From positions 6,278-70,277 of the forward strand of contig JAFSNR010000039.1 of assembly GCA_017443345.1 (NCBI GenBank): DNA of 64,000 nt. The letters run 5' to 3'. Of the stretch, positions 9,705-32,976 are shown one piece after another. Under the pieces are notes generated by a model that saw only the letters and a list, made by a program, of their open reading frames with translations, ran no database searches and had not been told where the DNA came from. A program made the position numbers and the translations under genes. The stretch comes from Prevotella sp. (GTDB lineage Bacteria > Bacteroidota > Bacteroidia > Bacteroidales > Bacteroidaceae). Positions within the stretch are counted from its first letter, which is position 1, and each line of letters begins with the position of its first letter.

Positions 9705-9944
9705 CTACTTCTTGATGAGGGAGGCAATCCACAGGATGGCGACGGCACCGATGATGGCTGTGCCAAGCTGGCCCAGGATGCCACCCCACTGAATGCCGAG
9801 CTGACCGAAAAGCCAGCCACCGAGAACACCACCAAAAAGGCCGAGGACCAGATTCATGATGAAACCGAATCCACCACCTTTCATCAACTTGCCAGCACAG
9901 AAGCCAGCCAAACAACCGATAATAATCGAACCAATAATTCCCAT
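9705..9944 (-). CDS. GlsB/YeaQ/YmgE family small membrane protein
   Basis: 79 aa, Gly-rich: 'IGCLAGFCAGKLMKGGGFGFIMNLVLGLFGGVLGGWLF'. Confidence 0.9.
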   Translation of the reverse strand: MGIIGSIIIGCLAGFCAGKLMKGGGFGFIMNLVLGLFGGVLGGWLFGQLGIQWGGILGQLGTAIIGAVAILWIASLIKK

Positions 9945-9987
9945 AATCGTATATTTAAAAAATTCAACTTGTCTGTAAAAGAAACGC

Positions 9988-11115
9988 CTAGAGCTTCAGC
10001 TTATTGGTAACGGGGTTGGCATAAATACCGAGGAAGATGTCCTTGAGGGCATCGACATCGCTATCGAAGCGTTCGAGCTTGGCGAGACGGGTCATGAAAG
10101 CTTCTTTTTCTTCACGGCTGTACTTGTTGGAGAACCTCCGCTGACCATAGAGCAGATCGTGAGCGATGTAGTTATTGGGCCAGAGCTTATAGGCGCTGAG
10201 GATACGCTTGTCAATGAGCTGGGCGACGCGTTTGTGGTACTCGTTGTTGGTGCAGTTATTAAACTCGATCAGATCGCCCTCCGTGATGAGTTCACAAATC
10301 TGGAAATGGACACGGCCCTTGGGCTTGAGAATGCCCGTCAGAATGCTATTGAGGTCCTCGCCTGGCTTCTTGATGTATTTGACATTCTGACTGGCATAGA
10401 GCTCGAGCGCCTTCAGGATGTCGCACGACTCCCACTCATAGGATACGGCAACGGGGGCGATGTTCAGCTCGCTCAGAGCGTCAATCTTATTCTCGGACTT
10501 GCTCATGCAGAACATCTTGATGATGCCCTGGTCTGTCTGGTCATTGCCGTCCTTGGTCCTGCCGTTGCGCTGGGCTATCCAGACGGATTCACGCTCTTCA
10601 TTGATGACGTGGCGGATATAGCTGGACAGGTGCAAGGAGCTCTTGTAGAAGTCCTTGATGCCGCCTCCTGGGCGCTCTACACGGAACATCCTGTTGGACT
10701 TGCCGATATCGACCACCAGCGGGTTCATCATCAGATTGGCACCGAAGGTGATCTGAGTGGTCTCCAAGCCTGCATCGACCAGGGCATTCTGGAGCAAGGA
10801 GGCGTCGAGCATGATGTCACGGTGATTGCTGACAAAGAGATAAGGCGTGCCTTTCTGCAGCTTCTCGGCTCCTTCGAACGTGAACGCCTTGATGCTGTTG
10901 TGAATGATCTGCTCATTCACCTTGTGCATGATGCCATATTGGAACTCCTTGACGGTCTTGAAACTGCGTAACAGGTTCTTCACATCATCCAAGGACTGGT
11001 CGGGACAGACATAGGATGCCAATAGCGGCATGGCAGGACTGTCGGCTATGCGACTCATCGCAGCTGGGATCTCCTCGTCGCGATAAGGACGGATGTCGTC
11101 GAATTCTTCCTTCAT
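9988..11115 (-). CDS. Glycerolipid acyltransferase (PlsC-like, HX4D)
   Basis: 'FVSNHRDIMLD', 'WIAQRNGRTKDG'. Confidence 0.85.
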   Translation of the reverse strand: MKEEFDDIRPYRDEEIPAAMSRIADSPAMPLLASYVCPDQSLDDVKNLLRSFKTVKEFQYGIMHKVNEQIIHNSIKAFTFEGAEKLQKGTPYLFVSNHRDIMLDASLLQNALVDAGLETTQITFGANLMMNPLVVDIGKSNRMFRVERPGGGIKDFYKSSLHLSSYIRHVINEERESVWIAQRNGRTKDGNDQTDQGIIKMFCMSKSENKIDALSELNIAPVAVSYEWESCDILKALELYASQNVKYIKKPGEDLNSILTGILKPKGRVHFQICELITEGDLIEFNNCTNNEYHKRVAQLIDKRILSAYKLWPNNYIAHDLLYGQRRFSNKYSREEKEAFMTRLAKLERFDSDVDALKDIFLGIYANPVTNKLKL

Positions 11116-11118
11116 GAT

Positions 11119-14007
11119 TTATGAGTTTAGGATGTCGTTGAGATTGATCACATTGGGTCTGTTCCCGCCATCTGGCATGTTCACGGCGTTACAGATATGA
11201 AGATTGGCGGGCATGGGCTCACAGGCCTTTGCCAGGTCGTAATCATCAGTTGTATCGGCGTAGGAATAGACTTCTATTTCGGGATGAACGAGTGCGAAGA
11301 GAAGGGAGAACTGACCACGTCCGGCATGGAGCACGGTGACCTCCTTCGCAGCACCATCAGCAGGCTGATAGCGATCGATCCAGGCGCTGAAGTCGTCGAA
11401 CCGCTTGAGCAGCTTCCTGGTCTCGCGCTCAACACCGATGCCCTTATAGGTGTATTTGCCAATGAGGTAATGGTGGTAGTCGTGCGTCGTGCCTGCCTCG
11501 TCAGGATTCCGACGCTTCAGGATCTTGCGCAGGGCCCAGCCGATCGTGATGGGCTCAGGGCGCACGACGCCGTTGCTCTTAACCAGCCACCCGAAGACCA
11601 GCGGTGGAATGACCCATGCCATCAGGACCACCGTGAACATGCCGACGATGGTGACCTCGGCGAGGGAATGGAGGGCAGGATGCTTGGCGACAATCAGCGA
11701 TCCCATGCCGATAAACATGATGAGGGCTGAGATGATGATGCTGTTCTTAAACGAGGGCAGCAGCTTCTTCTTATAGGCAAACTCGTTGATCAGGCCATCG
11801 GTGATAAAGATCGTGTAGTCGTCGCCCTGTCCGAAGATGAAGGTGGCGAGGATGACGTTGACGATATTGAACTGCATGCCCAGCATGCTCATGATGCCCA
11901 GGATCCAGATCCATCCCAAAGCCATGGGGAGGAAGGCCAGCAGACTCAGTTCCAACCTGCCGAAGGAGATCCAGAGGAAGATGAAGACGATGAATCCGCA
12001 GGCGAAACCGATATAGTTGAAGTCGTCGGACAAAGAGCTGGCGACGGCACTGTTCATTCGCATGAAATCAAAAGTATAGCCTGTCTCCCCTAACCTGTCG
12101 TTCAGGGCTTTCTCTATCTGAGCGAAATGGCTGTTGTCGGCATGAATGACATCCACCACCGAACAATTACCGTTACTGGTGCTGAAGGAATTGCTCATCA
12201 GCACGGATCGGATAGGCTCGAACGCTTCAAATGATTGGGGAGAATAGGCAGCAGAGATGATCGATTCGAACCCGCTAAAGGCATCCGTGCTAAACCCGAA
12301 TGACGGGGCCTTCGCTGATAACATGGCCTTGACATCGTCGCGATGCGCATCCCAGAAAGCGTTCCATCGATCAATCCTCTTCTGCTGTTCGTCAGAAGAG
12401 CATAGGAAGGAGGTGACATCTGAATAGCTATCTAAAAGACTCTTATTCTTGAGCGAGTCGAGCAGCGGTGCTATGTCCTGCCGCTTCTGAAGCGCAGCGT
12501 TCCAATCATCGCCCTCAGTCACCAGATAGATATTGGCCGTATCGTTCAGTCCAACAGAGGCCTGCATACTGGACAACAGCCTGGACTGGCGATCAGTCAT
12601 ATAGTTGATGTGATGCATGTTGGTGTCGAATGAGGTATCCAGACTGAAATAGCCGAAGACGACTGTCAGCAGCAGGATGACCCATAGCAGCCACCTATGA
12701 CGCTCGGGCGACATCGAGGACAGCTTGCCAAACGTCAGGCGCTCCTCGGTCTCAATCACCCGCTTCTTGACCAGATGGGGCAGGAAGATCAAGACGAAGA
12801 AGATGGTGCCCACCAGCATAAAGGCCGCAAAGAGACCCAGATCGCGCAAAGCGGGGGCATCGAGAGGTATCAAACTGGCAAAGGCGCCAACGGTCGTGAT
12901 GTTGCCGATCAGAAGTGGGGATATCATCTCCTTCAGCACCTCACGAACGGTTCCACCGTGATCGGTGTGGGCAATGAAATGAAGGGGATAATTGACGGCA
13001 ATACCAATAATGATAGAGCCTATGCCCAGAACAATCAAGGACACGTCGCTGCGAACGACAGCCATGAAGCCCATGGCAAACAGCCATCCGAAGACGATGG
13101 CCACACCTATCAGCAACAGGTTCTTGACCTTCCGGAAGGAGAACACCAATAACGTGAGTATCAGGGTGACCGAAATGGATATCGCCCACTGGCTGTCCTT
13201 CTTGATCTGGGCAGCATTACCGACGGCAATGACGGGTGCTCCGGTCGTCAAGACCTCGACATCAGGAACGGCCTCCATGGTCTGAAGGGCCATGCTGTCG
13301 ACATGCTCTACAAGCCGGCTGTTATTGGCTGACTCCATCGCTCCATAAGGCGAGGTCATCATGGCGATGGCATACTCTTTCCCAGGGGAAAAGATATAGC
13401 CATTATCAAACTCGATCGGTACGATCGACTGACGTGACTGTAACCTGTCCAACACGGGGCTGAAGAGCCCTAAGGGATCCTTGCTGATATTAGACGAGAA
13501 CAGTCCTGGTGCAGGCATCATAATCATCTGCACATCGTTGGCCAACTGCTCGTTGACCAGCTCGGGCGTCGACAAGATGCGCTCCATCCGGACATAGTCG
13601 GAATCACGGAGCATCAACGGCATCTGGTCATAGATGAAATCCGTGATGCCTGATACCTTCTCGAAATCGATCTGGGTGGTGATCTCACTGATCTGACCTC
13701 GCTCACAAGCAGGTTGCATCAGAACAGCGAACGTATCGACGGCATTCGTGAGCGTCTCTTCGTCGCCCTGACTGCCTTCTTTCAGTTTCAGCATCGCAAA
13801 AACCCTCTGACCGCCTGAAATCTCCTGATAGAGATTGATGGCTTTCTGCTCATTGCCACTGACTGGTAAGAAATCATAGATGTTCTCGTTGTATTTCATC
13901 GAGGCCATCATGACCAGCAAGATGCAAACGATGCCCGTCAGCAGCCAAAAGCACAAGGACTTCCGCTTCTGAAAGAGATCAAATATATGTAGGAAAAATT
14001 TTTCCAT
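11119..14007 (-). CDS. MMPL/RND family transporter with a short C-terminal methyltransferase-like tail
   Basis: Two TM bundles, motifs 'GIAVNYPLH' and 'FGQGDDY'; tail 'KYTYKG...LHAGRGQFSLLFALVHP'. Confidence 0.85.
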   Translation of the reverse strand: MEKFFLHIFDLFQKRKSLCFWLLTGIVCILLVMMASMKYNENIYDFLPVSGNEQKAINLYQEISGGQRVFAMLKLKEGSQGDEETLTNAVDTFAVLMQPACERGQISEITTQIDFEKVSGITDFIYDQMPLMLRDSDYVRMERILSTPELVNEQLANDVQMIMMPAPGLFSSNISKDPLGLFSPVLDRLQSRQSIVPIEFDNGYIFSPGKEYAIAMMTSPYGAMESANNSRLVEHVDSMALQTMEAVPDVEVLTTGAPVIAVGNAAQIKKDSQWAISISVTLILTLLVFSFRKVKNLLLIGVAIVFGWLFAMGFMAVVRSDVSLIVLGIGSIIIGIAVNYPLHFIAHTDHGGTVREVLKEMISPLLIGNITTVGAFASLIPLDAPALRDLGLFAAFMLVGTIFFVLIFLPHLVKKRVIETEERLTFGKLSSMSPERHRWLLWVILLLTVVFGYFSLDTSFDTNMHHINYMTDRQSRLLSSMQASVGLNDTANIYLVTEGDDWNAALQKRQDIAPLLDSLKNKSLLDSYSDVTSFLCSSDEQQKRIDRWNAFWDAHRDDVKAMLSAKAPSFGFSTDAFSGFESIISAAYSPQSFEAFEPIRSVLMSNSFSTSNGNCSVVDVIHADNSHFAQIEKALNDRLGETGYTFDFMRMNSAVASSLSDDFNYIGFACGFIVFIFLWISFGRLELSLLAFLPMALGWIWILGIMSMLGMQFNIVNVILATFIFGQGDDYTIFITDGLINEFAYKKKLLPSFKNSIIISALIMFIGMGSLIVAKHPALHSLAEVTIVGMFTVVLMAWVIPPLVFGWLVKSNGVVRPEPITIGWALRKILKRRNPDEAGTTHDYHHYLIGKYTYKGIGVERETRKLLKRFDDFSAWIDRYQPADGAAKEVTVLHAGRGQFSLLFALVHPEIEVYSYADTTDDYDLAKACEPMPANLHICNAVNMPDGGNRPNVINLNDILNS

Positions 14008-14014: not shown

Positions 14015-14839
14015 TCATCTGTAAACCGTATACTGTAAACCGTAAACCAGTCTATCCAACCACTCCAGGAACCTGGACTTCCACTGGATGGCCTCCGTTG
14101 TCGTCTTCTCTGGCGACACCCCGAAGCCATGACCTCCCGTACGGTAATGCTCATACTGGTGAGGAATCTTGTGAACGGTCAAGGCTGAGTCGAGCATCTC
14201 TGCATTGTGATAATGGACGATCGGATCGTCATCACAGTTCATCAGGAAGACTGGCGGACAATTGGCAGGCACATGATGTTCCAACGACAGCGAATCCTTC
14301 ATGGTCTGTGAGGGGTTTTCGCCTAAGAGTCCACGACGGGAACGTTTATGAGTCGTGGGATGAGTCATGGAAACCACAGGATAAAGGGGGGCGACGAAGA
14401 ACGGGCTGGAGGGTGTTCCAGCCAACTGCTCGGCCCCATGCATCACAAGATGGCCTCCCGCAGAAAAACCCATGCAGCCAATGCGATCAGGACGCACCCC
14501 ATAGGAAGATGCCTGGCTGCGCACACTGTCGAGTGCCTGACACAAGTCGTTGAAGCCAGCAGGGAATGAACGGGATTTCATGTGGACGTGAAAGGCGAAG
14601 GAAGCCCAGCCCGCATGACTATACTCTAACACAAACGCGGCAATGCCATGATCGCGAAGCCACTCTGCAACATGGTGGCCTTCGCCCTGCTTATCAAGCC
14701 AACAATAGCTGCCACCAGGACAAACGATGACACCTGTCCCCGTGGGATTCTCCTTGGGTATGTAGGGCGTCAGTTTATAGGCATTGACACCCAATGGACA
14801 AAGGAGAAGGGTAAAAAGAAATAAAAACAGATATTTCAC
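14015..14839 (-). CDS. Alpha/beta hydrolase (esterase-like)
   Basis: 'VCPGGSY', nucleophile elbow 'GFSAGGH', 'DDPIV', 'GGHGFG'; signal peptide. Confidence 0.85.
   Translation of the reverse strand: MKYLFLFLFTLLLCPLGVNAYKLTPYIPKENPTGTGVIVCPGGSYCWLDKQGEGHHVAEWLRDHGIAAFVLEYSHAGWASFAFHVHMKSRSFPAGFNDLCQALDSVRSQASSYGVRPDRIGCMGFSAGGHLVMHGAEQLAGTPSSPFFVAPLYPVVSMTHPTTHKRSRRGLLGENPSQTMKDSLSLEHHVPANCPPVFLMNCDDDPIVHYHNAEMLDSALTVHKIPHQYEHYRTGGHGFGVSPEKTTTEAIQWKSRFLEWLDRLVYGLQYTVYR
14019..14046 (-). repeat. 4 heptamers (mRNA sense TTTACGG/TTTACAG-type) encoding the hydrolase C-terminus
   Basis: Plus strand CTGTAAA CCGTATA CTGTAAA CCGTAAA. Confidence 0.85.
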
Positions 14840-16086
14840 TTCAGAAATGATTTTGAAAAATGGTTAAGTTCGGTAAAAAATACTTTTTCTTTCTCACCAA
14901 TGGTCTTTAATATATCACCTAGTTCATCATAGGTATAGTTTTCGCCTGCACGGTGCTTGACAATCCTGGAGGCTTTATAGGCAAACTCTCGCCACAGATC
15001 GCCGATGTCTGTGATACGGGCTGAATAATCATTGAATTCGGATATACCCGTCTTTTCTGCAGCTTCCTGCAGAAACGCACCATAGATAAAACGGAAGCCA
15101 GCCCCACCAGTCCCAATCTCCTCGAGCATTCTGATGACCTGAGCCAGGTTCTGCTTGGCACGACGAGCGCCCATCTTACTTTCCCAGGTACGTATTCTGC
15201 GGGAAAGATACAAGATGCCATTGGCACCCGCAATGTGGATGAAATCGGGCTGAGACACCATGTTCCAGCACGTCTTCCTAATGGACTTAAGGATCAAGGG
15301 CCTCAAATCGGGCAGTTGCTCAGGTACAGACTTGATCCAGTACATCTGTCCCAGTAATGGATAGGTTCCACCCGTGGCAAAGCGCACTTTCAGGAGATCC
15401 TCACGACTGATCGTCACCTTCTGAGTGGCATTAGAGTCCAACACACAATAATCGCCAGTCTTTTCGTCCTTTCCTGTAATGCAGATGTTATGACCATTAA
15501 AATGGAAACGATACTCTACAGGCAGATAAGGCAGGTTGAACATCCCCACGACGCATCCCACAGGCTTCTTCTGTTCCAAGATGACCTGATCCAGCTGTCG
15601 CATGGCTTTCTCTTTACTGAGATAACGATGGGTCTCAGTCTGGATGCCCAGCAGACTGGTAATGCGCTTAAACAAGACACCAGGGAAGGTCCTGAAGGCC
15701 GTTACTGGCATGCCAGACATTTTGATAAAGGGCAGATGGGTAAAGAACAGGCCACTGGCCAAGCCAAACACCATCGGCTCGGACAACTCAATGCCATAGT
15801 AGCGCAACAATGTCGAGATAGCCCCATTTTCGCAATGGGCTGCAGGCTGATGACTCAAGGGCAACTCGAAACCATGGAAGTCGGTGGTCGCATTCATGGT
15901 CATCTGCGCCCTCACCTCCTTATCCTTATCCTCCTCTAAGGCCAGATCGAGGGCGTCGTTCTTAGGCGTCCACCCGTCGCTCTTGACCATGTGGTATTTA
16001 CCCTCACTGTCAACAGCGTAGGTCTGATCCCTGACAACAGCGTCCTTGCAATATTTCAGGTCCTGAGGAACTTCTTCAATCTTCAA
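14836..16086 (-). CDS. BtrH N-terminal domain (NlpC/P60-like Cys-His) protein with an extra ~60 aa N-terminal segment
   Basis: 'AHCENG...SEPMVFGLASGLFF', 'FNGHNI', 'EEIGTGGAGFRFIYGAFLQEAA'. TTG start; an alternative ATG lies at 15903. Confidence 0.75.
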   Translation of the reverse strand: MKIEEVPQDLKYCKDAVVRDQTYAVDSEGKYHMVKSDGWTPKNDALDLALEEDKDKEVRAQMTMNATTDFHGFELPLSHQPAAHCENGAISTLLRYYGIELSEPMVFGLASGLFFTHLPFIKMSGMPVTAFRTFPGVLFKRITSLLGIQTETHRYLSKEKAMRQLDQVILEQKKPVGCVVGMFNLPYLPVEYRFHFNGHNICITGKDEKTGDYCVLDSNATQKVTISREDLLKVRFATGGTYPLLGQMYWIKSVPEQLPDLRPLILKSIRKTCWNMVSQPDFIHIAGANGILYLSRRIRTWESKMGARRAKQNLAQVIRMLEEIGTGGAGFRFIYGAFLQEAAEKTGISEFNDYSARITDIGDLWREFAYKASRIVKHRAGENYTYDELGDILKTIGEKEKVFFTELNHFSKSFLK

Positions 16087-16119: not shown

Positions 16120-17256
16120 CTAGCAAACCGTCAACATACAATAACTGTATGAGAAGCGTGCACTTTCGGGTATCATCACCATGACCTTCTGACCTTTCTC
16201 CAGTTTGCCGGACCTCATCAGTTCTTCAATCATCGCAAAGGCAGAGGCAGAGCCTATGTTGCCTATCTCGGGCAGATTATAGAACCACTTCTCCTCCGGA
16301 ATAAAGAAGCCCCTGGCCTTCGACTCTTCTAAGATCACGTCCTTAAAGAACATAGACGACATGTGAGGCAGGAGCCAGTCGATATCATCGGGTGTAAAAT
16401 GATATTTCGCACCCAGCTGTTTGAGATACTCAACACCCAGGGGAACGATGTTTTCAGCCAACAAGCGTGTATCCTGCTTCACGGCGAACAAGGATTTCGT
16501 CAGCCAGTCTTTCTGGGGATAAGATGCCCAACCATTCAGATGACCATCAAGGTCCTTGTCTGCTCCTGCGTACATACAGGTCTCTTTCGTATTGGCAAAG
16601 GATGTGATATCTATCCAGTCCACACGAAGCGACAGACCATCAGAGACAGGCTCATGCTGGAGCAACAAGGCGAAGGCACCATCCGACAACATCCAACGCA
16701 GGAAATCCTTCTGGAACGCGAGCATCGGCTGATCCTCCAACAGTGCCAGCTGCTCGGACTCTTCCTGGAAATAGGAGGCCTTCATCCATGGGGACAATCG
16801 CTCAGAAGCGACAGCCACAGCATTTTCAGACATGCCCATACTCACGGCCATAAAAGCATATTTCAAGGCATCGACACCTGTACAACATGAACCTGCAAAC
16901 GACACGACCTCGATGTTCTTCTGTCCCCCCAACTCGCCATGTACCATCACGCCATGGGAGGGTATCAACTGTTCAGGGGAGCCTGTACCACATGCCAGAA
17001 GATCGATGTCATCGATCGTCAGCTTATTATCCAACAGACCACGCACGGCATTAGCGGCCATCTCGACGTTGGTATGCGTCACATGACCTTCTTTGTCGAG
17101 CGCATAATATCTCTGTTTGATGCCGTTTCGTCTGAGGATAATCCGTCGTGCCTTTGAGGGTTTCCCGTCTATCATGCCAAGATACGCCTCCATATCGTCA
17201 TTGCCGACTGGATCGTTTGGCAGAAACCTCGCAGCTCTATTGATATATACATTCAT
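16120..17256 (-). CDS. darB: DarB/StlD-type ketosynthase (KAS III-like)
   Basis: 'ILRRNGIKQRYYA', Cys in 'AGSCCTG', His in 'LPHMSS', Asn in 'GNIGSAS', 'IPESARFSY'; adjacent to a darA-like gene. Confidence 0.82.
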   Translation of the reverse strand: MNVYINRAARFLPNDPVGNDDMEAYLGMIDGKPSKARRIILRRNGIKQRYYALDKEGHVTHTNVEMAANAVRGLLDNKLTIDDIDLLACGTGSPEQLIPSHGVMVHGELGGQKNIEVVSFAGSCCTGVDALKYAFMAVSMGMSENAVAVASERLSPWMKASYFQEESEQLALLEDQPMLAFQKDFLRWMLSDGAFALLLQHEPVSDGLSLRVDWIDITSFANTKETCMYAGADKDLDGHLNGWASYPQKDWLTKSLFAVKQDTRLLAENIVPLGVEYLKQLGAKYHFTPDDIDWLLPHMSSMFFKDVILEESKARGFFIPEEKWFYNLPEIGNIGSASAFAMIEELMRSGKLEKGQKVMVMIPESARFSYSYCMLTVC

Positions 17257-17259
17257 ATA

Positions 17260-17308
17260 CTATAAACTGTAAACTGTAAACCGTAAACTGTAAACTCTAA
17301 ACTCTAAA
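17260..17308 (-). repeat. 7 heptamers at the darA-darB junction
   Basis: Plus strand CTATAAA CTGTAAA CTGTAAA CCGTAAA CTGTAAA CTCTAAA CTCTAAA; contains the darA stop. Confidence 0.95.
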
Positions 17309-18179: not shown

Positions 18180-18181
18180 AA

Positions 18182-18195
18182 CTGTAAACCGTAAA
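18182..18195 (-). repeat. 2 heptamers at the GT2-darA junction
   Basis: Plus strand CTGTAAA CCGTAAA, directly after the stop. Confidence 0.7.
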
Positions 18196-21372: not shown

Positions 21373-21387
21373 CTAACCCCTAACCCC
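21373..21387 (-). repeat. 2 x GGGTTAG heptamer forming the CLF stop
   Basis: Plus strand CTAACCC CTAACCC C. Confidence 0.55.
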
Positions 21388-22416: not shown

Positions 22417-22417
22417 A

Positions 22418-24465: not shown

Positions 24466-24466
24466 G

Positions 24467-25618
24467 TCAAACTCTCTTGAACAGCATGGCAGCGTTACAT
24501 CCACCAAAACCTGACATCAATTTAATAAATGAACGTTTGTCGGTCTCTATCATCTCTGAGGTAACCATGATCTTTCTGCTGACGCCAAGGTTCTCAAAAC
24601 CTCTGGTAGGCAGGATCATCCCATCATTAAGCGCACAGATGGATATGATGGTTTCCAATACCCCCGCAGCACCCATCGTATGACCGAAATAACCTTTCAG
24701 ACTGTTGACTGGCAAGGTGTTCAATCCTGCTCTGTCGATAGCAACAGACTCCATCTCGTCATTAAACAAGGTGGCTGTGCCATGTGCATTCAGGAAAGCG
24801 ATGTCATCAAGATTCTGGTTCTGAAGGACACGTCGGAGCGCCCTATAACAGCCTTCACCCTTATTGGAGGGACTGGAGATATGGAACGCGTCATTCCGGA
24901 TGGCACCTGCCTCCAAATACCAATCACCATGCTTCAGAGCCTGCTTCTCCACACCTTTGTAGATGACCGTAGCTGCAGCATCTCCAAGGTTGATGCCTGT
25001 CCTGTCATCATCAAACGGACGGCATGGTTGATCAGTAAGCGCCTTCAACGATTGGAATCCAGAAACAATAAACGGCGTCAGGACATCAACACCACAGACG
25101 ATCACGTGGTCGTAATAGCCAGCTTCCAGGAAACGGGCAGCCACGATCTGACCACTGGCACCTGAGATGCAGGCATTGGATATCACAACGGGCTGATTGG
25201 GATTGCCCAGATTCGCAGCAATAGCCTTTGCAGCCTCTCCCAGCATCACTTGATCTTCGGCTATATCATCAGGGCGATGACTTAACAAGTCGACATTTCC
25301 CTTTGTCGATGACAGGATGATCAAGGTCTTCTCGGATGTCACATCCACCTCACACTGACTCAATGCCTGACGAATAGAAAGAATGGCCATCTTCTCGAAG
25401 AAAGTTTCATGGCCCGATATGCCTGCTGCTTCGCACGCAGCAAGCACTTCGTCATGACGAATCAGCGCTGCCATAAAAGGATCACCTCCCCCCCACTCTT
25501 CGCCATAGCGAGAGAGGCAGGAACGGCCATTCTTCACAGCGTCATAATTAGCTGACGTATGAAAGCCAAGTGGAGAGATGATATTATCTGCAATGAGAGC
25601 AGCTACTCTTTCAGCCAT
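24467..25618 (-). CDS. Beta-ketoacyl-ACP synthase
   Basis: 'ISNACISG' Cys, 'NAHGTATLFND', 'GYFGHTMGAAG', 'SGFGGCNAA'. Confidence 0.92.
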   Translation of the reverse strand: MAERVAALIADNIISPLGFHTSANYDAVKNGRSCLSRYGEEWGGGDPFMAALIRHDEVLAACEAAGISGHETFFEKMAILSIRQALSQCEVDVTSEKTLIILSSTKGNVDLLSHRPDDIAEDQVMLGEAAKAIAANLGNPNQPVVISNACISGASGQIVAARFLEAGYYDHVIVCGVDVLTPFIVSGFQSLKALTDQPCRPFDDDRTGINLGDAAATVIYKGVEKQALKHGDWYLEAGAIRNDAFHISSPSNKGEGCYRALRRVLQNQNLDDIAFLNAHGTATLFNDEMESVAIDRAGLNTLPVNSLKGYFGHTMGAAGVLETIISICALNDGMILPTRGFENLGVSRKIMVTSEMIETDKRSFIKLMSGFGGCNAAMLFKRV

Positions 25619-26022
25619 TTGTTCTTCCAGTCTTCGTAAAAAGGAGGATTAATCCACATCAGCTCATAATTGAAATCCATGAAGACCTGGACGGACGTGG
25701 CGGTAGCCATGATTTCCTGACTCTCCGCATCACGAATCTCATAATCAAAGATGATCTTGGCAGCCTCCGTATAACGGTAATGGATGGTTATCTCGGGCTG
25801 CATGCCGTATCTCAATGGTCTTTTATACTGAATGGATAAGTCGACAATGGGTGCAAACACCTTGTTTTCCTCAAAGACATCATATCCCAACTCGTAAACA
25901 CTGCCAAAATACTCTCGCGCATCTTCGAAATACTTAGCATACGCTCCATGCCAAACGACTCGCATGGCATCGATTTCACTGAAGCGTATCTTGATCTTGA
26001 TTGTGGCTGAAAGCGTCTTCAT
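25603..26022 (-). CDS. Acyl-CoA/ACP thioesterase (4HBT family)
   Basis: 'RFSEIDAMRVVWHGAYAKYFEDARE'. Confidence 0.9.
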   Translation of the reverse strand: MKTLSATIKIKIRFSEIDAMRVVWHGAYAKYFEDAREYFGSVYELGYDVFEENKVFAPIVDLSIQYKRPLRYGMQPEITIHYRYTEAAKIIFDYEIRDAESQEIMATATSVQVFMDFNYELMWINPPFYEDWKNKWLKE

Positions 26023-26026: not shown

Positions 26027-26479
26027 TCAGTTTTCCGGCTGTGCCTGATTTGTTGCTGCCATATCAGTCAATGCGATCTTGATACGAGCCGTTGATATGA
26101 CTTCATCATCAATCTTCACCGTGACGCTGGCCAGGGTCAGATTGAAGATGTCCTCTATGATATTCACATAAGTGGTCAACTTCTCGTGGCACTTGGGGCG
26201 TCGCAGAATCTGGCAGTTACGAATATCACCGATAAAACCCAGTTTCACCGATTCTTTCTCCTGCATATTGATACACCCCATTCTGGCAGCACATGATTGA
26301 GCGATGTTTTCTATAATACCTGTCGGTGCCAGCGTCATATCATCGAGGAAGATATTATCCTCGCGTACGACAAACTCCGTAACAGCGTCTGTCATGTCAC
26401 AGCTGAGCACCCTGTCCACCATCACAAACGGTGGACGCTGCGGTATCAGGTTGGTTATAGGAATATCCTTTAATTCCAT
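26027..26479 (-). CDS. Hotdog-fold 3-hydroxyacyl-ACP dehydratase-like protein
   Basis: 'LIPQRPPFVMVD', 'GIIENIAQSCAA', 'GFIG'. Confidence 0.82.
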   Translation of the reverse strand: MELKDIPITNLIPQRPPFVMVDRVLSCDMTDAVTEFVVREDNIFLDDMTLAPTGIIENIAQSCAARMGCINMQEKESVKLGFIGDIRNCQILRRPKCHEKLTTYVNIIEDIFNLTLASVTVKIDDEVISTARIKIALTDMAATNQAQPEN

Positions 26480-26487: not shown

Positions 26488-26730
26488 TTAAGCCACCTTT
26501 GACTCTATGTAGTCATAGAATTGGGAAAGTGTCTTAACGGTTGACATCTCCTGAGGTTTGATCTTGAAACCGAAGTTCTTTTCCACAATAACTACAATAT
26601 CTACATAGTCGAGGCTGTCAATACCCATATCTTCTTTCAATTTAGCCTCCGGAAAAATGTTTTCCTCATCTATTTCAAGGTCATCAATCAGGAATGCCTT
26701 TACTTTCTCTTCAATTTCTTCTCTTGACAT
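26488..26730 (-). CDS. Acyl carrier protein
   Basis: 'MGIDSLDYVD' motif; 80 aa. Confidence 0.93.
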   Translation of the reverse strand: MSREEIEEKVKAFLIDDLEIDEENIFPEAKLKEDMGIDSLDYVDIVVIVEKNFGFKIKPQEMSTVKTLSQFYDYIESKVA

Positions 26731-26767: not shown

Positions 26768-27667
26768 TTACTGTGCCCAGAAATCAAAGTAATTGTACCA
26801 TTGAGTGGGATAAAGTCGGATAATCCGCTCCAACTCTTTGATATAATTTCCGGACAGCTCCTTAATTTGCTCTGCACGAGATGCATTCTTATCATAATGC
26901 AACGGCGTCACGAATATTTTGTAACTTTTGGTTGATTTCTTGACAACATGAACTGCAAGTGCCTCTACGCCACGTATCGCTACCACCTGAAATGGTCCGA
27001 GCGGCAGATGGGCTTCCTTCCCCAGGAATGTCTGGGAAACATATTTGTGAGAGCCCCAGATACGGTCGGCAGGGATGCTGACGGTCTCACCATCAGCCAA
27101 GGCTCTGTTGATCTCAAACAAGTGACTCATATCTGATTTCATGGCTATCATGTGGATATTGGCACCCATAAAGAGTTTCTGCCTGTTATTCATGACCTCC
27201 TTCTTTTCCCCATCATAGACCAACGCATTAAAAGGCTTTTTATCGGCTACAAGGGTATAACCTGCTATTTCATAATTCCCGATATGAGAACTCAACTGGA
27301 CAAATCCTTCTGGCATATCGGCTAATTTCAGATAATTATCATACCCTTCAAGCTCGACATCAAATCGCTTGCCTCCATACATGGCAAACTTATCCAAGAC
27401 TGCCTGGGCGAACAGACAGTGGTTTTTGATGGTCATTAAGAAGGAACGCCATTTCGAATATCCTAATCGCTCATGCAAGAAACGATATGCATGCTTAAAA
27501 CCTGGTCTGAGAAAGCAAGGTGGAACCACAAAGATATAAGCTATGGCGTAAAAGAAACGAATGTCAACAGCCTGTAGCATCCTGATGAGTCCACGATGCA
27601 TAAAGCTGGTGCCAAAGGTCGTCCCTTCCCACTGCTTATCTGTCAGATTCTTATTCTCCACCATCAC
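26768..27667 (-). CDS. LpxL-like (lipid A / aryl-polyene type) acyltransferase 1
   Basis: 'LSSHIGNYEIAG', 'PADR', 'PTQWYNY'. Confidence 0.82.
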   Translation of the reverse strand: MMVENKNLTDKQWEGTTFGTSFMHRGLIRMLQAVDIRFFYAIAYIFVVPPCFLRPGFKHAYRFLHERLGYSKWRSFLMTIKNHCLFAQAVLDKFAMYGGKRFDVELEGYDNYLKLADMPEGFVQLSSHIGNYEIAGYTLVADKKPFNALVYDGEKKEVMNNRQKLFMGANIHMIAMKSDMSHLFEINRALADGETVSIPADRIWGSHKYVSQTFLGKEAHLPLGPFQVVAIRGVEALAVHVVKKSTKSYKIFVTPLHYDKNASRAEQIKELSGNYIKELERIIRLYPTQWYNYFDFWAQ

Positions 27668-27684
27668 TTCTCACTTTTCACTAC
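27664..27684 (-). repeat. 3 x NNAGTGA heptamer forming the methyltransferase C-terminus and stop
   Basis: mRNA GTAGTGA AAAGTGA GAAGTGA. Confidence 0.6.
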
Positions 27685-28770
27685 TAGAATAGAGTGTCCT
27701 TGTCCCAGGTGGTCATGGATCTGCTCGATCTCCAGACCAGCCTCACGGATACAAGCCTCCATATCCTCAGTGTTGTACATCTTCGAATTGCCATTGGCTA
27801 TGGCCGTGAAATACAGGCTTGTCATCGTCAGGCAGAAAGCCGCTGGTTCGAAGCGCTGACGATCCCACAACGTTTCCATGATGTAGATACGTGTATCCTT
27901 GGTCATCGCCTCTTTGGCACGCTTCAGGATACCCACGATCTCCTCCATCGAGAAACAGTCGAGGAACTGACTCATCCAGATGGCGTCCAATCCCCCTTCA
28001 CGTTTGGGGAAGAATGCCTGAGGATCGAGCAGGTTAATGCCATAGCCACTGATGCGCTCTGCGCCTGGCTTAGCCTTGACGTTCTCTTGCATCATACCAA
28101 TCTGCTGGGGCAGGTCGAGGATGGTGACCTCTACCTCGTCATTATAGCCCACGCATTGCAGGGCCCATTTACCTGTATTGCCGCCAACGTCGTAGAGTGA
28201 CTTGACATGGTGCTCGTCGAAGATGATTTTCAGGGCCTCGGGGAAGGATGAGTCGCTGTAGAAATGGTCGAAACCAAACCAGCTCTTCTGTACCTGTGGG
28301 GGCAGACTTGACAGTCCTTCGTACACCGTAGGCCAGGGGCCGAAGTGCTTCAGTCCCTCAGGCTTGCCATTTTTCAACGCCTCCTCCAGATGGAACCATC
28401 CTTCATAGTTCACATCGTGGTTGAAGTCGATGTTAACTCGCGTGGCTGGATCGTTCAACAAGAACCAGCCTGTCTTTGACAGGGTGTAACGGTCGGTCTC
28501 CGTATCAGCCAAGATGGTGCCGATGCAGAGCGAAGCCTCCAACAGACACTTGACCGCATAGTCGGAGAGGCCTGTCTTTTCGCAGATCTCCTGGCGCGTC
28601 AGTCCATCGTCGGCATCGCGCAGCATGTCGAGGATGCCCCATTTCACCATCAGTCTTGACGCCTGAAAGACCACTGGTCCCCAGGCAATGAACTCTGCCA
28701 GCCTCTGAGCATCGCGGGCTGAAAGCTGTTCATCTGTATATTTTTTCTTGAGTGCGGGTGATAAATTCAT
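27664..28770 (-). CDS. Class I SAM-dependent (O/C-)methyltransferase with N-terminal winged helix
   Basis: 'YDVGGNTGKWA', 'LDLP', 'SQFLDCF'. Confidence 0.88.
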   Translation of the reverse strand: MNLSPALKKKYTDEQLSARDAQRLAEFIAWGPVVFQASRLMVKWGILDMLRDADDGLTRQEICEKTGLSDYAVKCLLEASLCIGTILADTETDRYTLSKTGWFLLNDPATRVNIDFNHDVNYEGWFHLEEALKNGKPEGLKHFGPWPTVYEGLSSLPPQVQKSWFGFDHFYSDSSFPEALKIIFDEHHVKSLYDVGGNTGKWALQCVGYNDEVEVTILDLPQQIGMMQENVKAKPGAERISGYGINLLDPQAFFPKREGGLDAIWMSQFLDCFSMEEIVGILKRAKEAMTKDTRIYIMETLWDRQRFEPAAFCLTMTSLYFTAIANGNSKMYNTEDMEACIREAGLEIEQIHDHLGQGHSILVVKSEK

Positions 28771-28778: not shown

Positions 28779-29381
28779 TTACTTCTTGATGTCCTCCAGA
28801 AGGTCCTTGGCCAGACTCTTGTGGAACATCTTCATACGACGGGTAAAGTTAGGCACCTTGAAGTCCATGGTTCTTGATGATGCACCTCTGTAATCGATGA
28901 GATAAACCTTGCAGACGGTCTTGCCGCTGGCATCCAGGATGGTGAGGTCGCCGCTGATGATGATACCACCATCACGCTTGCTCATACTCCAGTAGGCTGC
29001 TCCGGAATTACCCGTGCTGAACTTTGATGCCTTGATAATGATGCGGTAGTCAGCCTGGTCACCATCAACCACCTTCAGGTTCTTTTTCTTCTCCTCGTTC
29101 CAACGCTTTGTAAAGAATTCCTTGGCATCTGCCATGTGGGAATCCCACTTATCGAATTCCTTCGGATCTTCTTCCTGCAGCCATTTCTTCAGGGTTCTGC
29201 CACTCTTCTCCTTGTCCTGGATGGTGGCATCCAGATAGTCAAACTCCACAGTAGCAGTCTTACCAGGTTGGCGAACCACATCAACGAAGCTGCCTTCTAC
29301 TACCTTAAACTCATCGTCGTCTGCGAACGCAGCCGTTACTGCAAACACGGCCATCATGGCCATCATTAACATTCTCTTCAT
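28779..29381 (-). CDS. Exported hypothetical protein
   Basis: Signal peptide MKRMLMMAMMAVFAVTAAFA; 200 aa ORF within the operon. Confidence 0.7.
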   Translation of the reverse strand: MKRMLMMAMMAVFAVTAAFADDDEFKVVEGSFVDVVRQPGKTATVEFDYLDATIQDKEKSGRTLKKWLQEEDPKEFDKWDSHMADAKEFFTKRWNEEKKKNLKVVDGDQADYRIIIKASKFSTGNSGAAYWSMSKRDGGIIISGDLTILDASGKTVCKVYLIDYRGASSRTMDFKVPNFTRRMKMFHKSLAKDLLEDIKK

Positions 29382-29409: not shown

Positions 29410-30291
29410 TCATTCTTCAGTGTCGTCTATCCAAAGATTGGCATAATTAAACCACTGCAGTGGATAAAGATCCAGAAGTCTTTCTATCTCTTTGGTATAA
29501 GCATCTGCCAGTTGTTGCCTTTGCTGGCTTTTTGGCAAAGACTTATCATAATATAAGGGTGTGAAATAAGCGCTATAGACATCATCGCTTTCTTTCATCG
29601 CACTGACCATAAACACAAAAGTCCCTTTCGTCACAGCCAAGGAGAAGGGGCCTCGTGCCAGATTGACTTTTTTCCCATGGATCGTGGAAATCACCACCTT
29701 ATTAATATTAAAGAGTCTGTCAGCAAAGGCACTGACAATCTCTCCATGGTCCAAAGCTTCAACGATTTTCTCGCTATCAGTCGTTCCGGAGCCCACGGAA
29801 ATCATCTGAATATTCATGGCTCCAAATGAGGATTTACGATAATCCATCAGATTCTGTTTCTCGCCACCATAGACAAGCACATTACAGGGCTTGGATAATG
29901 GAAGAGAATATCCCAGGATCTCACTACATCCTATATGGGCATTCAGCTGAAAGAAAGATTCCGGACTTGCCATTTTCTCCTGATAGAGCTCCAGACCGTG
30001 ATAATGGATGACGAATTTATGTCCTGCATACATGGCAAACTTATCTATGACAGTCTGACCAAATAGACAATGGTTCAAATAGGTATCCTTGATGGATTTG
30101 AATCTGCCATATCCTCTTTTCTCGCGGAAATAATGATAGGTCAGACGTGCCCCTGGACTCAGAACCAGCGTCACAGGGATCACAAAGATATACATAAAAA
30201 CATAGAAGAACTTGAAGCTGATATGCTTCAGCAAGTATATCAGCAACCTATGCATGCCTGCACTTCCGTATGTTCTCCCTAGATAGCCCAT
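29410..30291 (-). CDS. LpxL-like acyltransferase 2
   Basis: 'NHCLFGQTVIDKFAMYAG' (shared with paralog 1), 'NAHIGCSEILG', 'FADR', 'PLQWFNY'. Confidence 0.8.
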   Translation of the reverse strand: MGYLGRTYGSAGMHRLLIYLLKHISFKFFYVFMYIFVIPVTLVLSPGARLTYHYFREKRGYGRFKSIKDTYLNHCLFGQTVIDKFAMYAGHKFVIHYHGLELYQEKMASPESFFQLNAHIGCSEILGYSLPLSKPCNVLVYGGEKQNLMDYRKSSFGAMNIQMISVGSGTTDSEKIVEALDHGEIVSAFADRLFNINKVVISTIHGKKVNLARGPFSLAVTKGTFVFMVSAMKESDDVYSAYFTPLYYDKSLPKSQQRQQLADAYTKEIERLLDLYPLQWFNYANLWIDDTEE

Positions 30292-31502
30292 TTCTTAAGC
30301 ACCAATGCCGAATTTGTGCCGCCAAAGCCGAATGAGTTGCTTAATACGACATTTACCTCGGTCTCAACAGTCTTAGCAGTTATATTTAAAGGCTCTGAAT
30401 ATTCATCGGGGTTCTCAAAGTTGATATTCGGGGCCACAAAATTATTCTGCATCATAATCATACTATAGACAGCCTCTGAGGCACCTGCCATCCAACATTC
30501 ATGTCCAGTCATGGACTTGGTGCTGGAGATCAAGGCGCGTTGGCCTCTGAGCAACCTGTCGAGTGCCTTGGCTTCATACATATCACCCTGATGGGTTGAA
30601 GTGGCATGAGCATTGACATAATCAATGTCCTTGATATCAATACCGGCATCCTTGATGGCCCTTGACATGGCTATAAAGCTTCCTTCGTCACTTGGCTCGG
30701 AGATGCCACCTCCGTTGCTGGAGAAGCCATAGCCACATACTTCGGCAAAGATGGTTGCTCCCCTCTTCATGGCATGATCATAATCCTCGAGAATCAAGGC
30801 GGCAGCTCCACCACTGGGCACTAAACCGTCACGGTCGCAATCGAAGGGGCGCGATGCTTTTGTGGGTTCGTCCATACGGATAGAGAATGCATTCAGGGCA
30901 TCAAAAGATGACATGGAAAACTTATTGACCTCCTGAGCACCACCACAAAGGATCATATCTTGTAAACCTTGTTTGATCAGCAAATAGCCAAGACCTATGG
31001 AGTGAGAACCACTTGCACAGGCTGAACTGACAGTGAAATTCACGCCACGAAGATGGAATATGGTATTCATATTCATGTTAACCGTGGAATTCATGCCCTG
31101 GAAGATCAAACCAGAACCGATCATCGCGGAATCATGCTTCTCGCTCATGATGTTGGCAGTCTCGACAACAGCACTGGCAGAGGAGTCATTTCCAAAAATC
31201 ACACCAACTTCATTCGCTAACAGATAAGCATCATCAACACCCGCCATCTGGAATGCGTCTTTACTGGCCATGAAAGCATATTCTGCCTCTTCAGACAGTC
31301 CCATGCGCGTACGACGATCCAAGACGCCCTTCAACTGCGGACGTTTGACCATACCCGTCAAACCAGAACGGAAGCCATAATCCAACCTGTCTTGGTCTAA
31401 ACCTATTCCAGAGATTCCATGATAGAGTGAATTCTTAACTTCTTCAACACTTGTTCCGAGGCATGACCAAATGCCTATACCCGTAATAACAACTCTTCCC
31501 AT
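30279..31502 (-). CDS. fabF: Beta-ketoacyl-ACP synthase II (FabF-like, cluster copy)
   Basis: 'SSACASGSHSIG', 'NAHATST', 'KSMTGHECWMAG', 'SNSFGFGG'. Confidence 0.9.
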   Translation of the reverse strand: MGRVVITGIGIWSCLGTSVEEVKNSLYHGISGIGLDQDRLDYGFRSGLTGMVKRPQLKGVLDRRTRMGLSEEAEYAFMASKDAFQMAGVDDAYLLANEVGVIFGNDSSASAVVETANIMSEKHDSAMIGSGLIFQGMNSTVNMNMNTIFHLRGVNFTVSSACASGSHSIGLGYLLIKQGLQDMILCGGAQEVNKFSMSSFDALNAFSIRMDEPTKASRPFDCDRDGLVPSGGAAALILEDYDHAMKRGATIFAEVCGYGFSSNGGGISEPSDEGSFIAMSRAIKDAGIDIKDIDYVNAHATSTHQGDMYEAKALDRLLRGQRALISSTKSMTGHECWMAGASEAVYSMIMMQNNFVAPNINFENPDEYSEPLNITAKTVETEVNVVLSNSFGFGGTNSALVLKKWAI

Positions 31503-31506
31503 AATA

Positions 31507-31548
31507 CTCTAACCTCTAACCACTAACTACTAACCACTAACCACTAAG
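31507..31548 (-). repeat. 6 heptamers (mRNA GTTAG(T/A)G) at the fabG-fabF junction
   Basis: Plus strand CTCTAAC x2, CACTAAC, TACTAAC, CACTAAC, CACTAAG. Confidence 0.92.
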
Positions 31549-32275
31549 TATAAAGTCCTCCATTGATGGAGATAACCTCTCCTGTGATATACGATGCTGC
31601 ATCTGAGAGGAGGAACTTCACTAATGCAGCAACCTCCTCAGGCTTACCAAAACGTTTCATCGGGATCATCTGCTTCAACTCATCCTGAGGAAGTTCCTTT
31701 GTCATGTCCGTATCGATGAAACCAGGCGCAACGGCATTAACCGTGACATTCCTGGCTGCCACCTCCAGTGCGAGTGCTTTGGTGGCGCCTATAAGTGCAG
31801 CCTTGGCAGCGCTATAGTTCACCTGTCCCTGCATGCCTTTTAATCCTGACAGTGAGGCCATGTTGACGATATGTCCGCCATGCTTACGCTTCATCATGTT
31901 GGGTAACAATTTCCGTGTAACGTAGAAAAAGCCATCCAATGAAGTGTTTATGACAGAATGCCAATCAGCATCGGGCATCATGAACATGACATTGTCACGA
32001 CGGATGCCGGCATTATTGACAAGGTAGGCGATATAGTCATCAAGATGACTCTCCTCCCATGCTTCAAGGGCATTTTCAACTTCACTTTGGTTGCTGACAT
32101 CAAATTTCATGAGTTCAGCATGTCCACCATTTGCTTCAATAGCGGCTTTGACTTCTTCCGCTGCAGTCTCATTAGACTGGAAATTGATGATAACGGGGAT
32201 TCCCATGCCGGCTATTTCAAGACAAACAGCCTTTCCTAATCCACGGGATCCTCCTGTAACAAGAGCATATTTCAT
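31544..32275 (-). CDS. fabG: 3-oxoacyl-ACP reductase (cluster copy)
   Basis: 'TGGSRGLG', 'VNNAG', 'NYSAAK', 'VAPGFIDTDM'. Confidence 0.93.
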   Translation of the reverse strand: MKYALVTGGSRGLGKAVCLEIAGMGIPVIINFQSNETAAEEVKAAIEANGGHAELMKFDVSNQSEVENALEAWEESHLDDYIAYLVNNAGIRRDNVMFMMPDADWHSVINTSLDGFFYVTRKLLPNMMKRKHGGHIVNMASLSGLKGMQGQVNYSAAKAALIGATKALALEVAARNVTVNAVAPGFIDTDMTKELPQDELKQMIPMKRFGKPEEVAALVKFLLSDAASYITGEVISINGGLYT

Positions 32276-32278
32276 AAA

Positions 32279-32306
32279 CTATAAACTGTAAACCGTAAAC
32301 TATAAT
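32279..32306 (-). repeat. 4 heptamers at the upxY-fabG junction
   Basis: Plus strand CTATAAA CTGTAAA CCGTAAA CTATAAT. Confidence 0.9.
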
Positions 32307-32307
32307 C

Positions 32308-32976
32308 TCATATTTTTTCTATAAATGCTGAAGGTATATAGGCGGTTGATATCAACCCAAATTGCGAGAGAGTGATAATGACTCTTTGCTGTCCTGATAC
32401 CCTGGCTACCTTACCCTTCACTCCTGTAAACGGACCGTCAACGACCTGAACCTCCTCACCGCTTTTGTAATGACACTGGGAGGGCTTTACAAAAAACAGA
32501 TGCTCATTCCTGGTGATGGTTGCACGGATAAAGTTTTCCATCTCTGAACAGGCGATAGTTAACGGAGGGTTCTTTTGCTGGTCATCCTGTTCGAAATGAT
32601 TATAATAATAAGAGAGGTAATTGAGAGCGGGTGTACGCTTGATATAGCCCTCAGCTTTCTCTGGTGTCGTATAGGCGAATAAGATATTTGGTATCAATGC
32701 CTTCAACATCCTCCTTCTTTTCCCGTTAACTATCCGATTTGTATACCGCTTAGCGATATACACGAACGTACCATCGTTGATCAGGAAGTCGGAAGCCTTG
32801 TCGACTCGCCCATAGGAGGCTCGGAAGACATACCATTTCTTGTTTTCGTCATGAACGTATCTTACCGACACCCCGGTTTGAACGTTCTTCGCCTCGGGGA
32901 CGATGTCAAGGGTAAACTTGACACTGGAAGGATCTAACTCTCCTCCTGGAGTTTCCACATTAGACAATGTGCTCAT
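32308..32976 (-). CDS. upxY: UpxY-family (NusG paralog) transcription antiterminator
   Basis: NGN domain 'WYVFRASYGR...LIPNILFAY...PPLTI...MENFI'; KOW 'GEEVQVVDGPFTGVKG'. Confidence 0.87.
   Translation of the reverse strand: MSTLSNVETPGGELDPSSVKFTLDIVPEAKNVQTGVSVRYVHDENKKWYVFRASYGRVDKASDFLINDGTFVYIAKRYTNRIVNGKRRRMLKALIPNILFAYTTPEKAEGYIKRTPALNYLSYYYNHFEQDDQQKNPPLTIACSEMENFIRATITRNEHLFFVKPSQCHYKSGEEVQVVDGPFTGVKGKVARVSGQQRVIITLSQFGLISTAYIPSAFIEKI

Follow-up and report, generated by a model that had tools for sequence, protein, structure and literature searches.

The question raised by this locus is what a long, co-oriented lipid gene cluster in an anaerobic Prevotella makes, and whether its peculiarities mark a distinct product or variations on a known one. 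The window, by which we mean the whole stretch of DNA analyzed, comprises 64,000 nucleotides (nt) of contig JAFSNR010000039.1 (Prevotella sp., assembly GCA_017443345.1, forward-strand positions 6,278 to 70,277). The ORF list and a table of intergenic gaps show 27 consecutive minus-strand open reading frames (ORFs) running from position 32976 down to 9705; coordinates given below for genes of this run are therefore on the minus strand. An earlier note on this DNA described a 23-kb co-oriented aryl-polyene/flexirubin-like cluster with a non-canonical gene set, whose order, fusions and omissions pointed to a distinct outer-membrane lipid. Our analysis bears out the first part of that description and only a fraction of the second. 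The locus is likely, in our view, to be a rumen Prevotella operon of the flexirubin family, in which genes for an aryl-polyene acid are joined to a dialkylresorcinol module and to genes for lipid anchoring and export.

Family membership was assigned with Pfam and NCBIfam profiles at the NCBI curated cut-offs. Five flexirubin/dialkylresorcinol models of NCBIfam are exceeded, and these place the cluster in the Bacteroidota flexirubin/aryl-polyene type. They are the ketoreductase FlxB, a short-chain dehydrogenase/reductase (31544–32275; NF053542, 390.8 against a cut-off of 340); the FlxJ-family methyltransferase (27664–28770; NF053543, 606.8 against 560); LolA2, a periplasmic carrier of the flexirubin type (20373–21005; NF053544, 212 against 125); DarB, a ketosynthase of the StlD/DarB family (16120–17256; NF053539, 556.8 against 550); and the BtrH-type acyltransferase DarH (within 14836–16086; NF053550, 368.5 against 300). 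The nearest relatives of DarB, at 70–90% identity, come from metagenome-assembled genomes (MAGs) of rumen Prevotella and from the isolate Prevotella sp. ne3005. The host genome itself (4.16 Mb, 92% complete) is that of a rumen Prevotella, in agreement with the anaerobic host supposed earlier.

The polyene-building core is a type II set of ketosynthase (KS), chain-length factor (CLF), acyl carrier protein (ACP), ketoreductase and dehydratase genes in flx gene order, without an enoyl reductase. KS1 (30279–31502) is FabB/ApeR-like, with the N- and C-terminal ketoacyl-synt domains of Pfam and aligned active-site residues; KS2 (24467–25618) is ApeO-like by active-site alignment and by its matches to 6qsp_A and 7f28_B; and KS3 (22418–23614) was identified by Pfam and by the same alignment. 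When the four KS-family proteins are aligned, the Cys-His-His residues are present in those of 407, 398 and 383 amino acids (aa), and the Cys and both His are lost from the fourth. This 367-aa protein (21373–22476; PF13723; matches to 6qsp_B and 7f28_A) is the ApeC-like CLF partner of KS3. The second candidate partner, a 204-aa ORF (23893–24507), has no sequence match in the PDB. Its AlphaFold model (18 homologs, pLDDT 85) adopts half of a thiolase fold, and the best Foldseek matches of that model are KS and CLF chains such as 6kxd_B and 1tqy_B. On the fold search alone, we take this truncated thiolase-fold protein to be a probable CLF-like partner of KS2. KS2 and the 204-aa protein occur as one fused protein of 566–596 aa in three related genomes (G006, G007 and G077), and in two of these (G007 and G077) KS3 and the 367-aa partner are fused as well. 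The count of three Cys-His-His ketosynthases and two CLF-like partners proposed from the letters therefore stands.

The remaining core genes are ACP1 (26488–26730) and ACP2 (23627–23884), both matching PF00550; two hotdog dehydratases, one FabZ/ApeP-like (26027–26479; Pfam/NCBIfam) and one ApeI-like (19611–19976; PF22818); and an ApeK-like 4HBT thioesterase (25603–26022; PF13279). With FlxB and FlxJ, they account for the FabG, dehydratases, thioesterase and methyltransferase listed previously. The two ACPs of that list are correct for 9705–32976, but the locus has four once a divergent unit at 33135–36278 is counted. Outside the window, contig C14 of the host carries a second lipid locus at ∼41.5–47.4 kb, with a KS1 paralog (56% identity), a FabZ-like dehydratase, an MMPL protein (28%) and a CrtI-like oxidoreductase dependent on flavin adenine dinucleotide (FAD) (29%).

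To place this core we compared the cluster with those of a Flavobacteriales MAG (G002), a Tannerellaceae MAG (G003), a Paludibacteraceae MAG (G004), a genome of the same family (G008), ne3005 (G001) and five more genomes of the family. Clusters that contain tyrosine ammonia-lyase (TAL) share the order TAL, FlxB, KS1, ACP, acyltransferase, in some cases FlxJ, dehydratase, thioesterase, KS2, 204-aa partner, ACP, KS3, CLF, CE4 deacetylase, LolA2, dehydratase, family 2 glycosyltransferase (GT2) and MMPL. The core in the window is collinear with the TAL-containing clusters of the Flavobacteriales MAG, the Tannerellaceae MAG and the same-family genome, and all of its KS and CLF genes correspond one to one with theirs. 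Because the core order is the TAL-type order, gene order gives no pointer to a different product. The fusions do not provide one either, since they re-partition the same domains. The 470-aa protein that joins a GT2 domain of the polyprenyl-phosphate-sugar-synthase type to a PlsC domain (18196–19608; Pfam/NCBIfam) has the architecture of ApeJ; in G002 and G006, GT2 stands alone and PlsC is carried on the MMPL protein (1160–1272 aa), so the fusion appears to be a redistribution of domains already present in relatives. Overall, a canonical-type cluster offers counterparts for 19–20 of the 27 genes. The earlier note had named gene-for-gene grouping with a characterized cluster as one result that would speak against a distinct lipid, and such grouping extends to about two-thirds of the genes. 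The label non-canonical comes down to a swapped starter module and a few accessory genes.

A real difference from TAL-type clusters lies in the starter module. Neither the FlxA TAL model (NF053541) nor the aromatic ammonia-lyase family (PF00221) has a match in the 92%-complete host genome, and the same is true of UbiC and of the FkbO/XanB2 chorismatase (PF21168), for which a control matched in B. thetaiotaomicron. The two TAL profiles are also unmatched in ne3005, in a Hadza Prevotella MAG (G005) and in a 99%-complete congener (G189); TAL scores above its cut-off in G002, G003, G004 and G008. A PaaK-like ligase lies next to TAL in the TAL-type clusters of G003 and G008. It is present in the clusters of G006 and G031 too, and clusters with neither TAL nor an AMP-forming ligase carry it. 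The window cluster has no ortholog of this ligase, and only paralogs of 26–28% identity occur elsewhere in the genome. What the window offers instead is a plus-strand pair, ACP3 (33135–33359; 74 aa, PF00550) and an AMP-forming ligase (33359–34678; 439 aa, PF00501 and PF13193), which we propose as the starter-loading enzyme with its carrier protein. At least 13 relatives have this pair as the last genes of the operon, following PlsC/MMPL. Here it stands upstream of upxY and divergent from it, an arrangement that one inversion of the 23-kb block could explain.

The two starter modules appear to exclude each other. We sampled 201 genomes of the family, among which 30 are FlxJ-positive: seven of these have TAL and 11 the AMP-ligase, with no genome in both groups and 12 in neither. 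TAL is likewise missing from two ligase-positive genomes that belong to other families of the order. Given the margins, the chance of zero overlap is ∼0.025; since the sampled genomes are related, this value is descriptive only. We found no published description of mutually exclusive starter modules. A broad protein search with the ligase returned only close Prevotella relatives, named "acyl-CoA ligase." As for the omissions held to be telling, TAL and the FAD oxidoreductase discussed below are really missing, but lack of TAL is the rule among the FlxJ-positive genomes (23 of 30), and the flavoprotein was lost in a recent deletion.

One possible reading of this pattern, which we put forward tentatively and rate as clearly short of even odds, is that Prevotella-type clusters exchanged de novo starter synthesis, by TAL and a PaaK-like coenzyme A (CoA) ligase, for an adenylase that loads an ACP with an aromatic acid drawn from the rumen; plant-derived 4-coumarate, ferulate and 4-hydroxybenzoate are examples. 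If so, the head group of an outer-membrane pigment lipid would be diet-derived and could vary with the feed of the host. The membrane pigment chemistry of a dominant rumen genus would then depend on diet. A head group that remains phenolic is favored by FlxJ, whose equivalog-level score is maintained in this cluster and in 29 of the 30 FlxJ-positive genomes of the family.

Two further candidates for the starter module were rejected. Downstream of the ligase on the plus strand lie a membrane acyltransferase of the PlsC type (34682–36043; 453 aa, PF01553) and ACP4 (36003–36278; PF00550), with which it is paired. Their homologs sit away from aryl-polyene clusters in G077 and G049, and we therefore treat them as a neighboring module. 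In G077, where an ACP4-like ORF is part of it, a module of acyltransferase, KS, ACP and secreted protein is found on a contig other than that of the aryl-polyene cluster (L108, 6481–9285). The 453-aa acyltransferase and ACP4 probably form a small lipid module of their own next to the ligase, and the module seen in G077 may be an undescribed one. The other candidate was a secreted alpha/beta hydrolase of the carbohydrate-esterase type (14015–14839), with BD-FAE and Peptidase_S9 matches, a signal peptide, and resemblance to PaeX/AxeA1 and to PDB entries 6a6o and 7dwc. It might have replaced TAL by freeing hydroxycinnamates as starter, but orthologs occur in four of eight TAL-positive genomes and the correlation argument fails. 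With orthologs in 23 of the 201 family genomes, within clusters, the esterase is instead a core gene of these clusters in the family of Prevotella.

The dialkylresorcinol genes form a compact cassette. DarA, the resorcinol-forming aromatase partner of DarB (17304–18179; 291 aa), matches no family model. We identify it as DarA because it adjoins DarB in every lineage examined, from Prevotella to Chitinophagaceae, at 30–72% identity. DarB is followed by a fusion (14836–16086) of an N-terminal DarG segment of ∼61 aa, for which DarG models score below their cut-offs, to DarH; in the Tannerellaceae MAG, DarG is a separate gene. With DarB and DarH above their cut-offs and DarA placed by adjacency, the DarA/DarB/BtrH-like genes of the first description are all accounted for. 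The adjacency of DarA, DarB and DarH is kept from Prevotella to Chitinophagaceae. DarAB is nonetheless rare in the family, being present in seven of the 201 genomes and three of the 30 FlxJ-positive ones, so that DarA-DarB-DarGH looks like a cassette insertion between GT2-PlsC and the esterase. We found no published description of an in-operon Dar cassette in an anaerobe. The ne3005 cluster (L085/L086; C17:1-2900) carries two tandem DarG-DarH paralogs; it begins at the gene for an LPLAT-type acyltransferase, and FlxB and KS1 are not upstream on that contig.

A deletion scar lies at the head of this cassette. Between GT2-PlsC and DarA, 27 related DarB loci encode a CrtI/amine-oxidase-like FAD oxidoreductase, which Dar-less clusters have too but the window lacks. 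The scar (18162–18195, minus strand) consists of the first 18 nt of darA, ATGAAGAAGTGCGTCGTC, whose six codons are identical to the start of the oxidoreductase gene in L008, and of the 16 nt that separate them from the GT2-PlsC gene. After ATGAAGAAGTGCGTCGTC the sequence resumes as darA from approximately codon 6, across a CGTCGT microhomology. An assembly artefact is rejected as the reason for the missing oxidoreductase, since at least 23 contigs of independent metagenome assemblies carry the identical chimeric DarA, 16 nt downstream of GT2-PlsC. The cluster is intact in at least 23 contigs from independent samples. Loss of the flavoprotein is thus a fixed, clean, microhomology-mediated in-frame deletion that reuses the start codon of the lost gene. 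It is a recent event and not an ancient alternative design, and no published description of such a scarred flavoprotein deletion was found.

From these genes a working scheme can be proposed. The gene content, partner relations and conservation are read directly from the genomes compared, and each chemical step would follow from homology to Flx and Ape proteins, with flx gene roles taken from PMC3992019 and those of ApeD and ApeJ from bioRxiv 10.1101/2020.12.19.423268. The ligase would adenylate an aromatic carboxylic acid and load it onto ACP3. Since TAL, UbiC and FkbO/XanB2 are missing, that acid would come from a route yet to be recognized or from the rumen. KS1 would prime the chain, and the heterodimers of KS2 with the 204-aa CLF and of KS3 with the 367-aa CLF would extend it on ACP1 and ACP2. 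FlxB would reduce each keto group and the two hotdog proteins would dehydrate the products; because there is no enoyl reductase, the chain should remain a polyene. FlxJ, given its equivalog-level homology, would methylate the ring. DarB and DarA would make a 2,5-dialkylresorcinol, onto which the BtrH-type DarG-DarH protein may move the ACP-bound polyene, giving a flexirubin-type ester. By analogy with aryl-polyene lipids (APELs), the ApeD-like acyltransferases and the ApeJ-like GT2-PlsC protein would build or decorate a glycerophospho-sugar lipid; the polyprenyl-phosphate-sugar-synthase character of the GT2 domain fits a sugar-phosphate linkage like that of APELs. EamA, MMPL, LolA2 and a LolB2-like lipoprotein would carry the products to the outer membrane, where the secreted esterase may trim an ester.

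Other readings of the same genes have to be weighed against this one. The polyene might not be aryl at all if the ligase loads an aliphatic acid, in which case the product would be a plain conjugated polyenoic acid, resembling the C26:5 conjugated acyl chain of an APEL, carried as a resorcinol ester or a glycerolipid. The missing starter enzymes and the undecided specificity of the ligase allow for this, and similar KS machinery in Xenorhabdus also makes a non-aryl conjugated fatty acyl chain (bioRxiv 10.1101/2020.12.19.423268). We nevertheless regard a non-aryl product as improbable, given that the retained FlxJ methylates the phenol ring in flexirubin and aryl-polyene (APE) systems, and that the KS and CLF genes match those of TAL-type clusters one to one. 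A less remote, though still unlikely, alternative is that the locus makes two separate products: the Dar cassette would yield free dialkylresorcinols or cyclohexanediones, serving as signals or antimicrobials as in Photorhabdus and Pseudomonas, and the other genes an aryl-polyene lipid that is never esterified to resorcinol. DarB is, after all, missing from 27 of the 30 FlxJ-positive family genomes, DarA-DarB-DarH behaves as an insertable cassette, and the lipid tool kit of the ApeD/ApeJ type is complete. What tells against separate products is that the BtrH-type DarH accompanies DarAB in polyene clusters of lineages ranging from Prevotella to Flavobacteriales, and that the cassette is translationally packed into the operon. 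Least probable of all, and in our view very hard to sustain, is that the cluster is a silent, decaying and rearranged remnant that has lost its starter enzymes and its flavoprotein. The CrtI-like deletion, the absence of TAL and the relocated ligase pair, oriented consistently with a 23-kb block inversion, could be taken in that sense. Yet none of the 27 frames is interrupted, their junctions are tight or overlapping, and the deletion is precisely in frame. At least 23 contigs, drawn from many samples, share one DarA protein and one GT2-PlsC/DarA junction, and a rumen survey reported that Prevotella aryl-polyene clusters are expressed (10.1101/2020.05.19.105130).

The flexirubin-family reading that we prefer has points of its own to answer, and the following weigh against it. 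With a host genome that is 92% complete, the absence of TAL is not absolute. The nearest solved structures to the ligase are a nonribosomal peptide synthetase A-domain, feruloyl-CoA synthetase, malonyl-CoA synthetase and 4-coumarate-CoA ligase, a range that leaves its substrate undecided. The PaaK-like ligase is presumed to be FlxY from its position beside TAL, and not from comparison with Cpin_1877. The characterized clusters of Chitinophaga pinensis and Flavobacterium johnsoniae were compared only indirectly, by way of NCBIfam models and the Flavobacteriales MAG. Finally, the lost flavoprotein may be required for the normal product.

The accessory genes of the operon include the LolA-like, MMPL, GT2 and multiple acyltransferase genes listed in the first inventory. 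An ApeD-like acyltransferase of the lipid A type (26768–27667; PF03279) keeps its position in all clusters compared. Its paralog (41% identity), the LPLAT-type acyltransferase (29410–30291; weak PRK07920 match), is found only in Prevotella-type relatives among these clusters. The slot held in TAL-type clusters by a NodB-type CE4 deacetylase, with TFDDG and HSxxH motifs, is filled by a small EamA/ArnE-F-like membrane protein (21015–21371; Pfam/NCBIfam), a putative flippase half; the deacetylase is absent from the window cluster. The LolB2-like lipoprotein (19973–20407) is a weak match, at 34.9 below the NF053540 cut-off of 60, and its position is conserved. Toward the end of the operon lie the ApeM-like MMPL/RND exporter (11119–14007; Pfam/NCBIfam) and a PlsC-type acyltransferase (9988–11115; PF01553), the latter kept in Prevotella-family clusters with or without Dar genes. 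An orphan of 200 aa with a signal peptide (28779–29381) has no Pfam or NCBIfam match and no homolog in any locus compared or elsewhere in the genome, and its single-sequence AlphaFold model (pLDDT 39) is unusable. In the Dar-less clusters of G031 and G077 (L106/L107 and L097/L098), we also found a B12-type radical-SAM gene (431 aa, 85% identical between genera) with a 120-aa partner; neither has a homolog in the genome of the window.

The operon opens with a NusG-like antiterminator of the UpxY family (32308–32976; NF033644, 106.8 against 100, with NGN and KOW domains), which may keep RNA polymerase going across the 23 kb. Relatives of UpxY include a 67%-identical fragment upstream of FlxB in L038 and a divergent NusG-NGN ORF within the G189 cluster. 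Terminator-like sites inside the operon number 18, against 14.8 ± 4.1 in shuffles; this count shows no excess and so gives no argument either way on antitermination. Gaps across the run range from −59 to +47 nt. The earlier figure of gaps under 45 nt fits every junction except that between DarA and DarB, which is the 47-nt maximum. The last ORF encodes a small GlsB/YeaQ-like membrane protein (9705–9944; PF04226, Transgly_assoc) that is co-oriented, yet of doubtful operon membership: it shows no co-occurrence with the cluster in the relatives compared. Beyond it, the hairpin reported at 9609–9643 is real. This GC-rich, strandless element, AATAGCCCCCTC-ATTTTC-GGAGGGGGCTATT, sits between convergent genes and is likely a bidirectional terminator. 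At the other end, CAAAATTA at 33026–33033, the reverse complement of the Bacteroidetes −7 motif TAnnTTTG, falls ∼50 nt upstream of the upxY start, in the 158 nt that separate the divergent genes, and is only a match in sequence. Further along the window, an ABC-2/HlyD/OEP exporter set (36199–41160) lies convergent to ACP4 and is followed by cytochrome bd oxidase genes (42462–45136). The exporter gene at 36199–37494 has no homolog near the cluster in the relatives examined.

As a class, such clusters are known and are routinely flagged as arylpolyene/resorcinol in Prevotella of the rumen, the pig and the oral cavity. They are among the biosynthetic clusters most often predicted in Bacteroidales of the rumen and gut: 2,800 aryl-polyene/resorcinol clusters were counted among 8,160 rumen genomes in one survey. 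We found no paper in which the product has been characterized for Prevotella or for any other anaerobe of the Bacteroidales. Within the family of Prevotella, the parts that vary are the starter module (TAL, a PaaK-like ligase, or an ACP with an AMP-ligase), the Dar cassette, the flavoprotein, the radical-SAM module and the deacetylase or esterase. The cultured Prevotella sp. ne3005 has the same cluster type on contig NZ_FOCK01000009, and both the chemistry and the starter question are therefore directly testable.

It is useful to set the locus beside three characterized systems. The flexirubin clusters are those of C. pinensis (flxA-flxY plus darAB) and F. johnsoniae (Fjoh_1073-1110; Schoner et al. 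2014, PMC3992019). Like them, the window cluster has five KS-family proteins, FlxB, two dehydratases, a thioesterase, FlxJ, ACPs, LolA2, a glycosyltransferase, an RND exporter, acyltransferases, and DarA with DarB. Unlike them, it has an ACP and AMP-ligase pair in place of the FlxA TAL and the PaaK-like ligase, and an EamA protein and an alpha/beta esterase in place of the CE4 polysaccharide deacetylase. It has also lost the FAD oxidoreductase, holds its Dar genes inside the operon, carries the DarG-DarH and GT2-PlsC fusions, is headed by UpxY and resides in an anaerobe. The second system is the APE/APEL cluster apeA-R of E. coli CFT073 and Xenorhabdus doucetiae (Grammbitter et al., bioRxiv 10.1101/2020.12.19.423268), in which the glycosyl/acyltransferase ApeJ joins sugar and aryl polyene to form the Xenorhabdus APELs. 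The window shares with it the KS:CLF pairs (ApeO:ApeC, structure 6qsp), ApeI- and ApeP-like dehydratases, two ACPs, the absence of TAL, the ApeJ-type GT2-acyltransferase fusion, an ApeD-like acyltransferase, a LolA-like carrier and an MMPL exporter, as well as, by our proposal, a starter acid that would be adenylated and then placed on an ACP. The conserved ACP3-ligase pair is a candidate counterpart of ApeH, the enzyme that adenylates an aryl acid for transfer to an ACP. The window differs in having DarAB and DarH, in proteins that score as Flx and not Ape equivalogs, and in a genome without UbiC; no DUF3261 protein (ApeN) was found. The third system, the arcuflavin (xanthomonadin-dialkylresorcinol hybrid) clusters of Azoarcus sp. 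BH72 (PMC3949708), is proteobacterial, has its genes split over several loci and encodes an XanB2-type chorismatase that the Prevotella genome does not. In arcuflavin, as may also be the case here, a polyene built on a starter activated by an AMP-ligase (benzoic acid in Azoarcus) is esterified to a resorcinol made by DarAB, and in both a BtrH-like gene stands beside darB.

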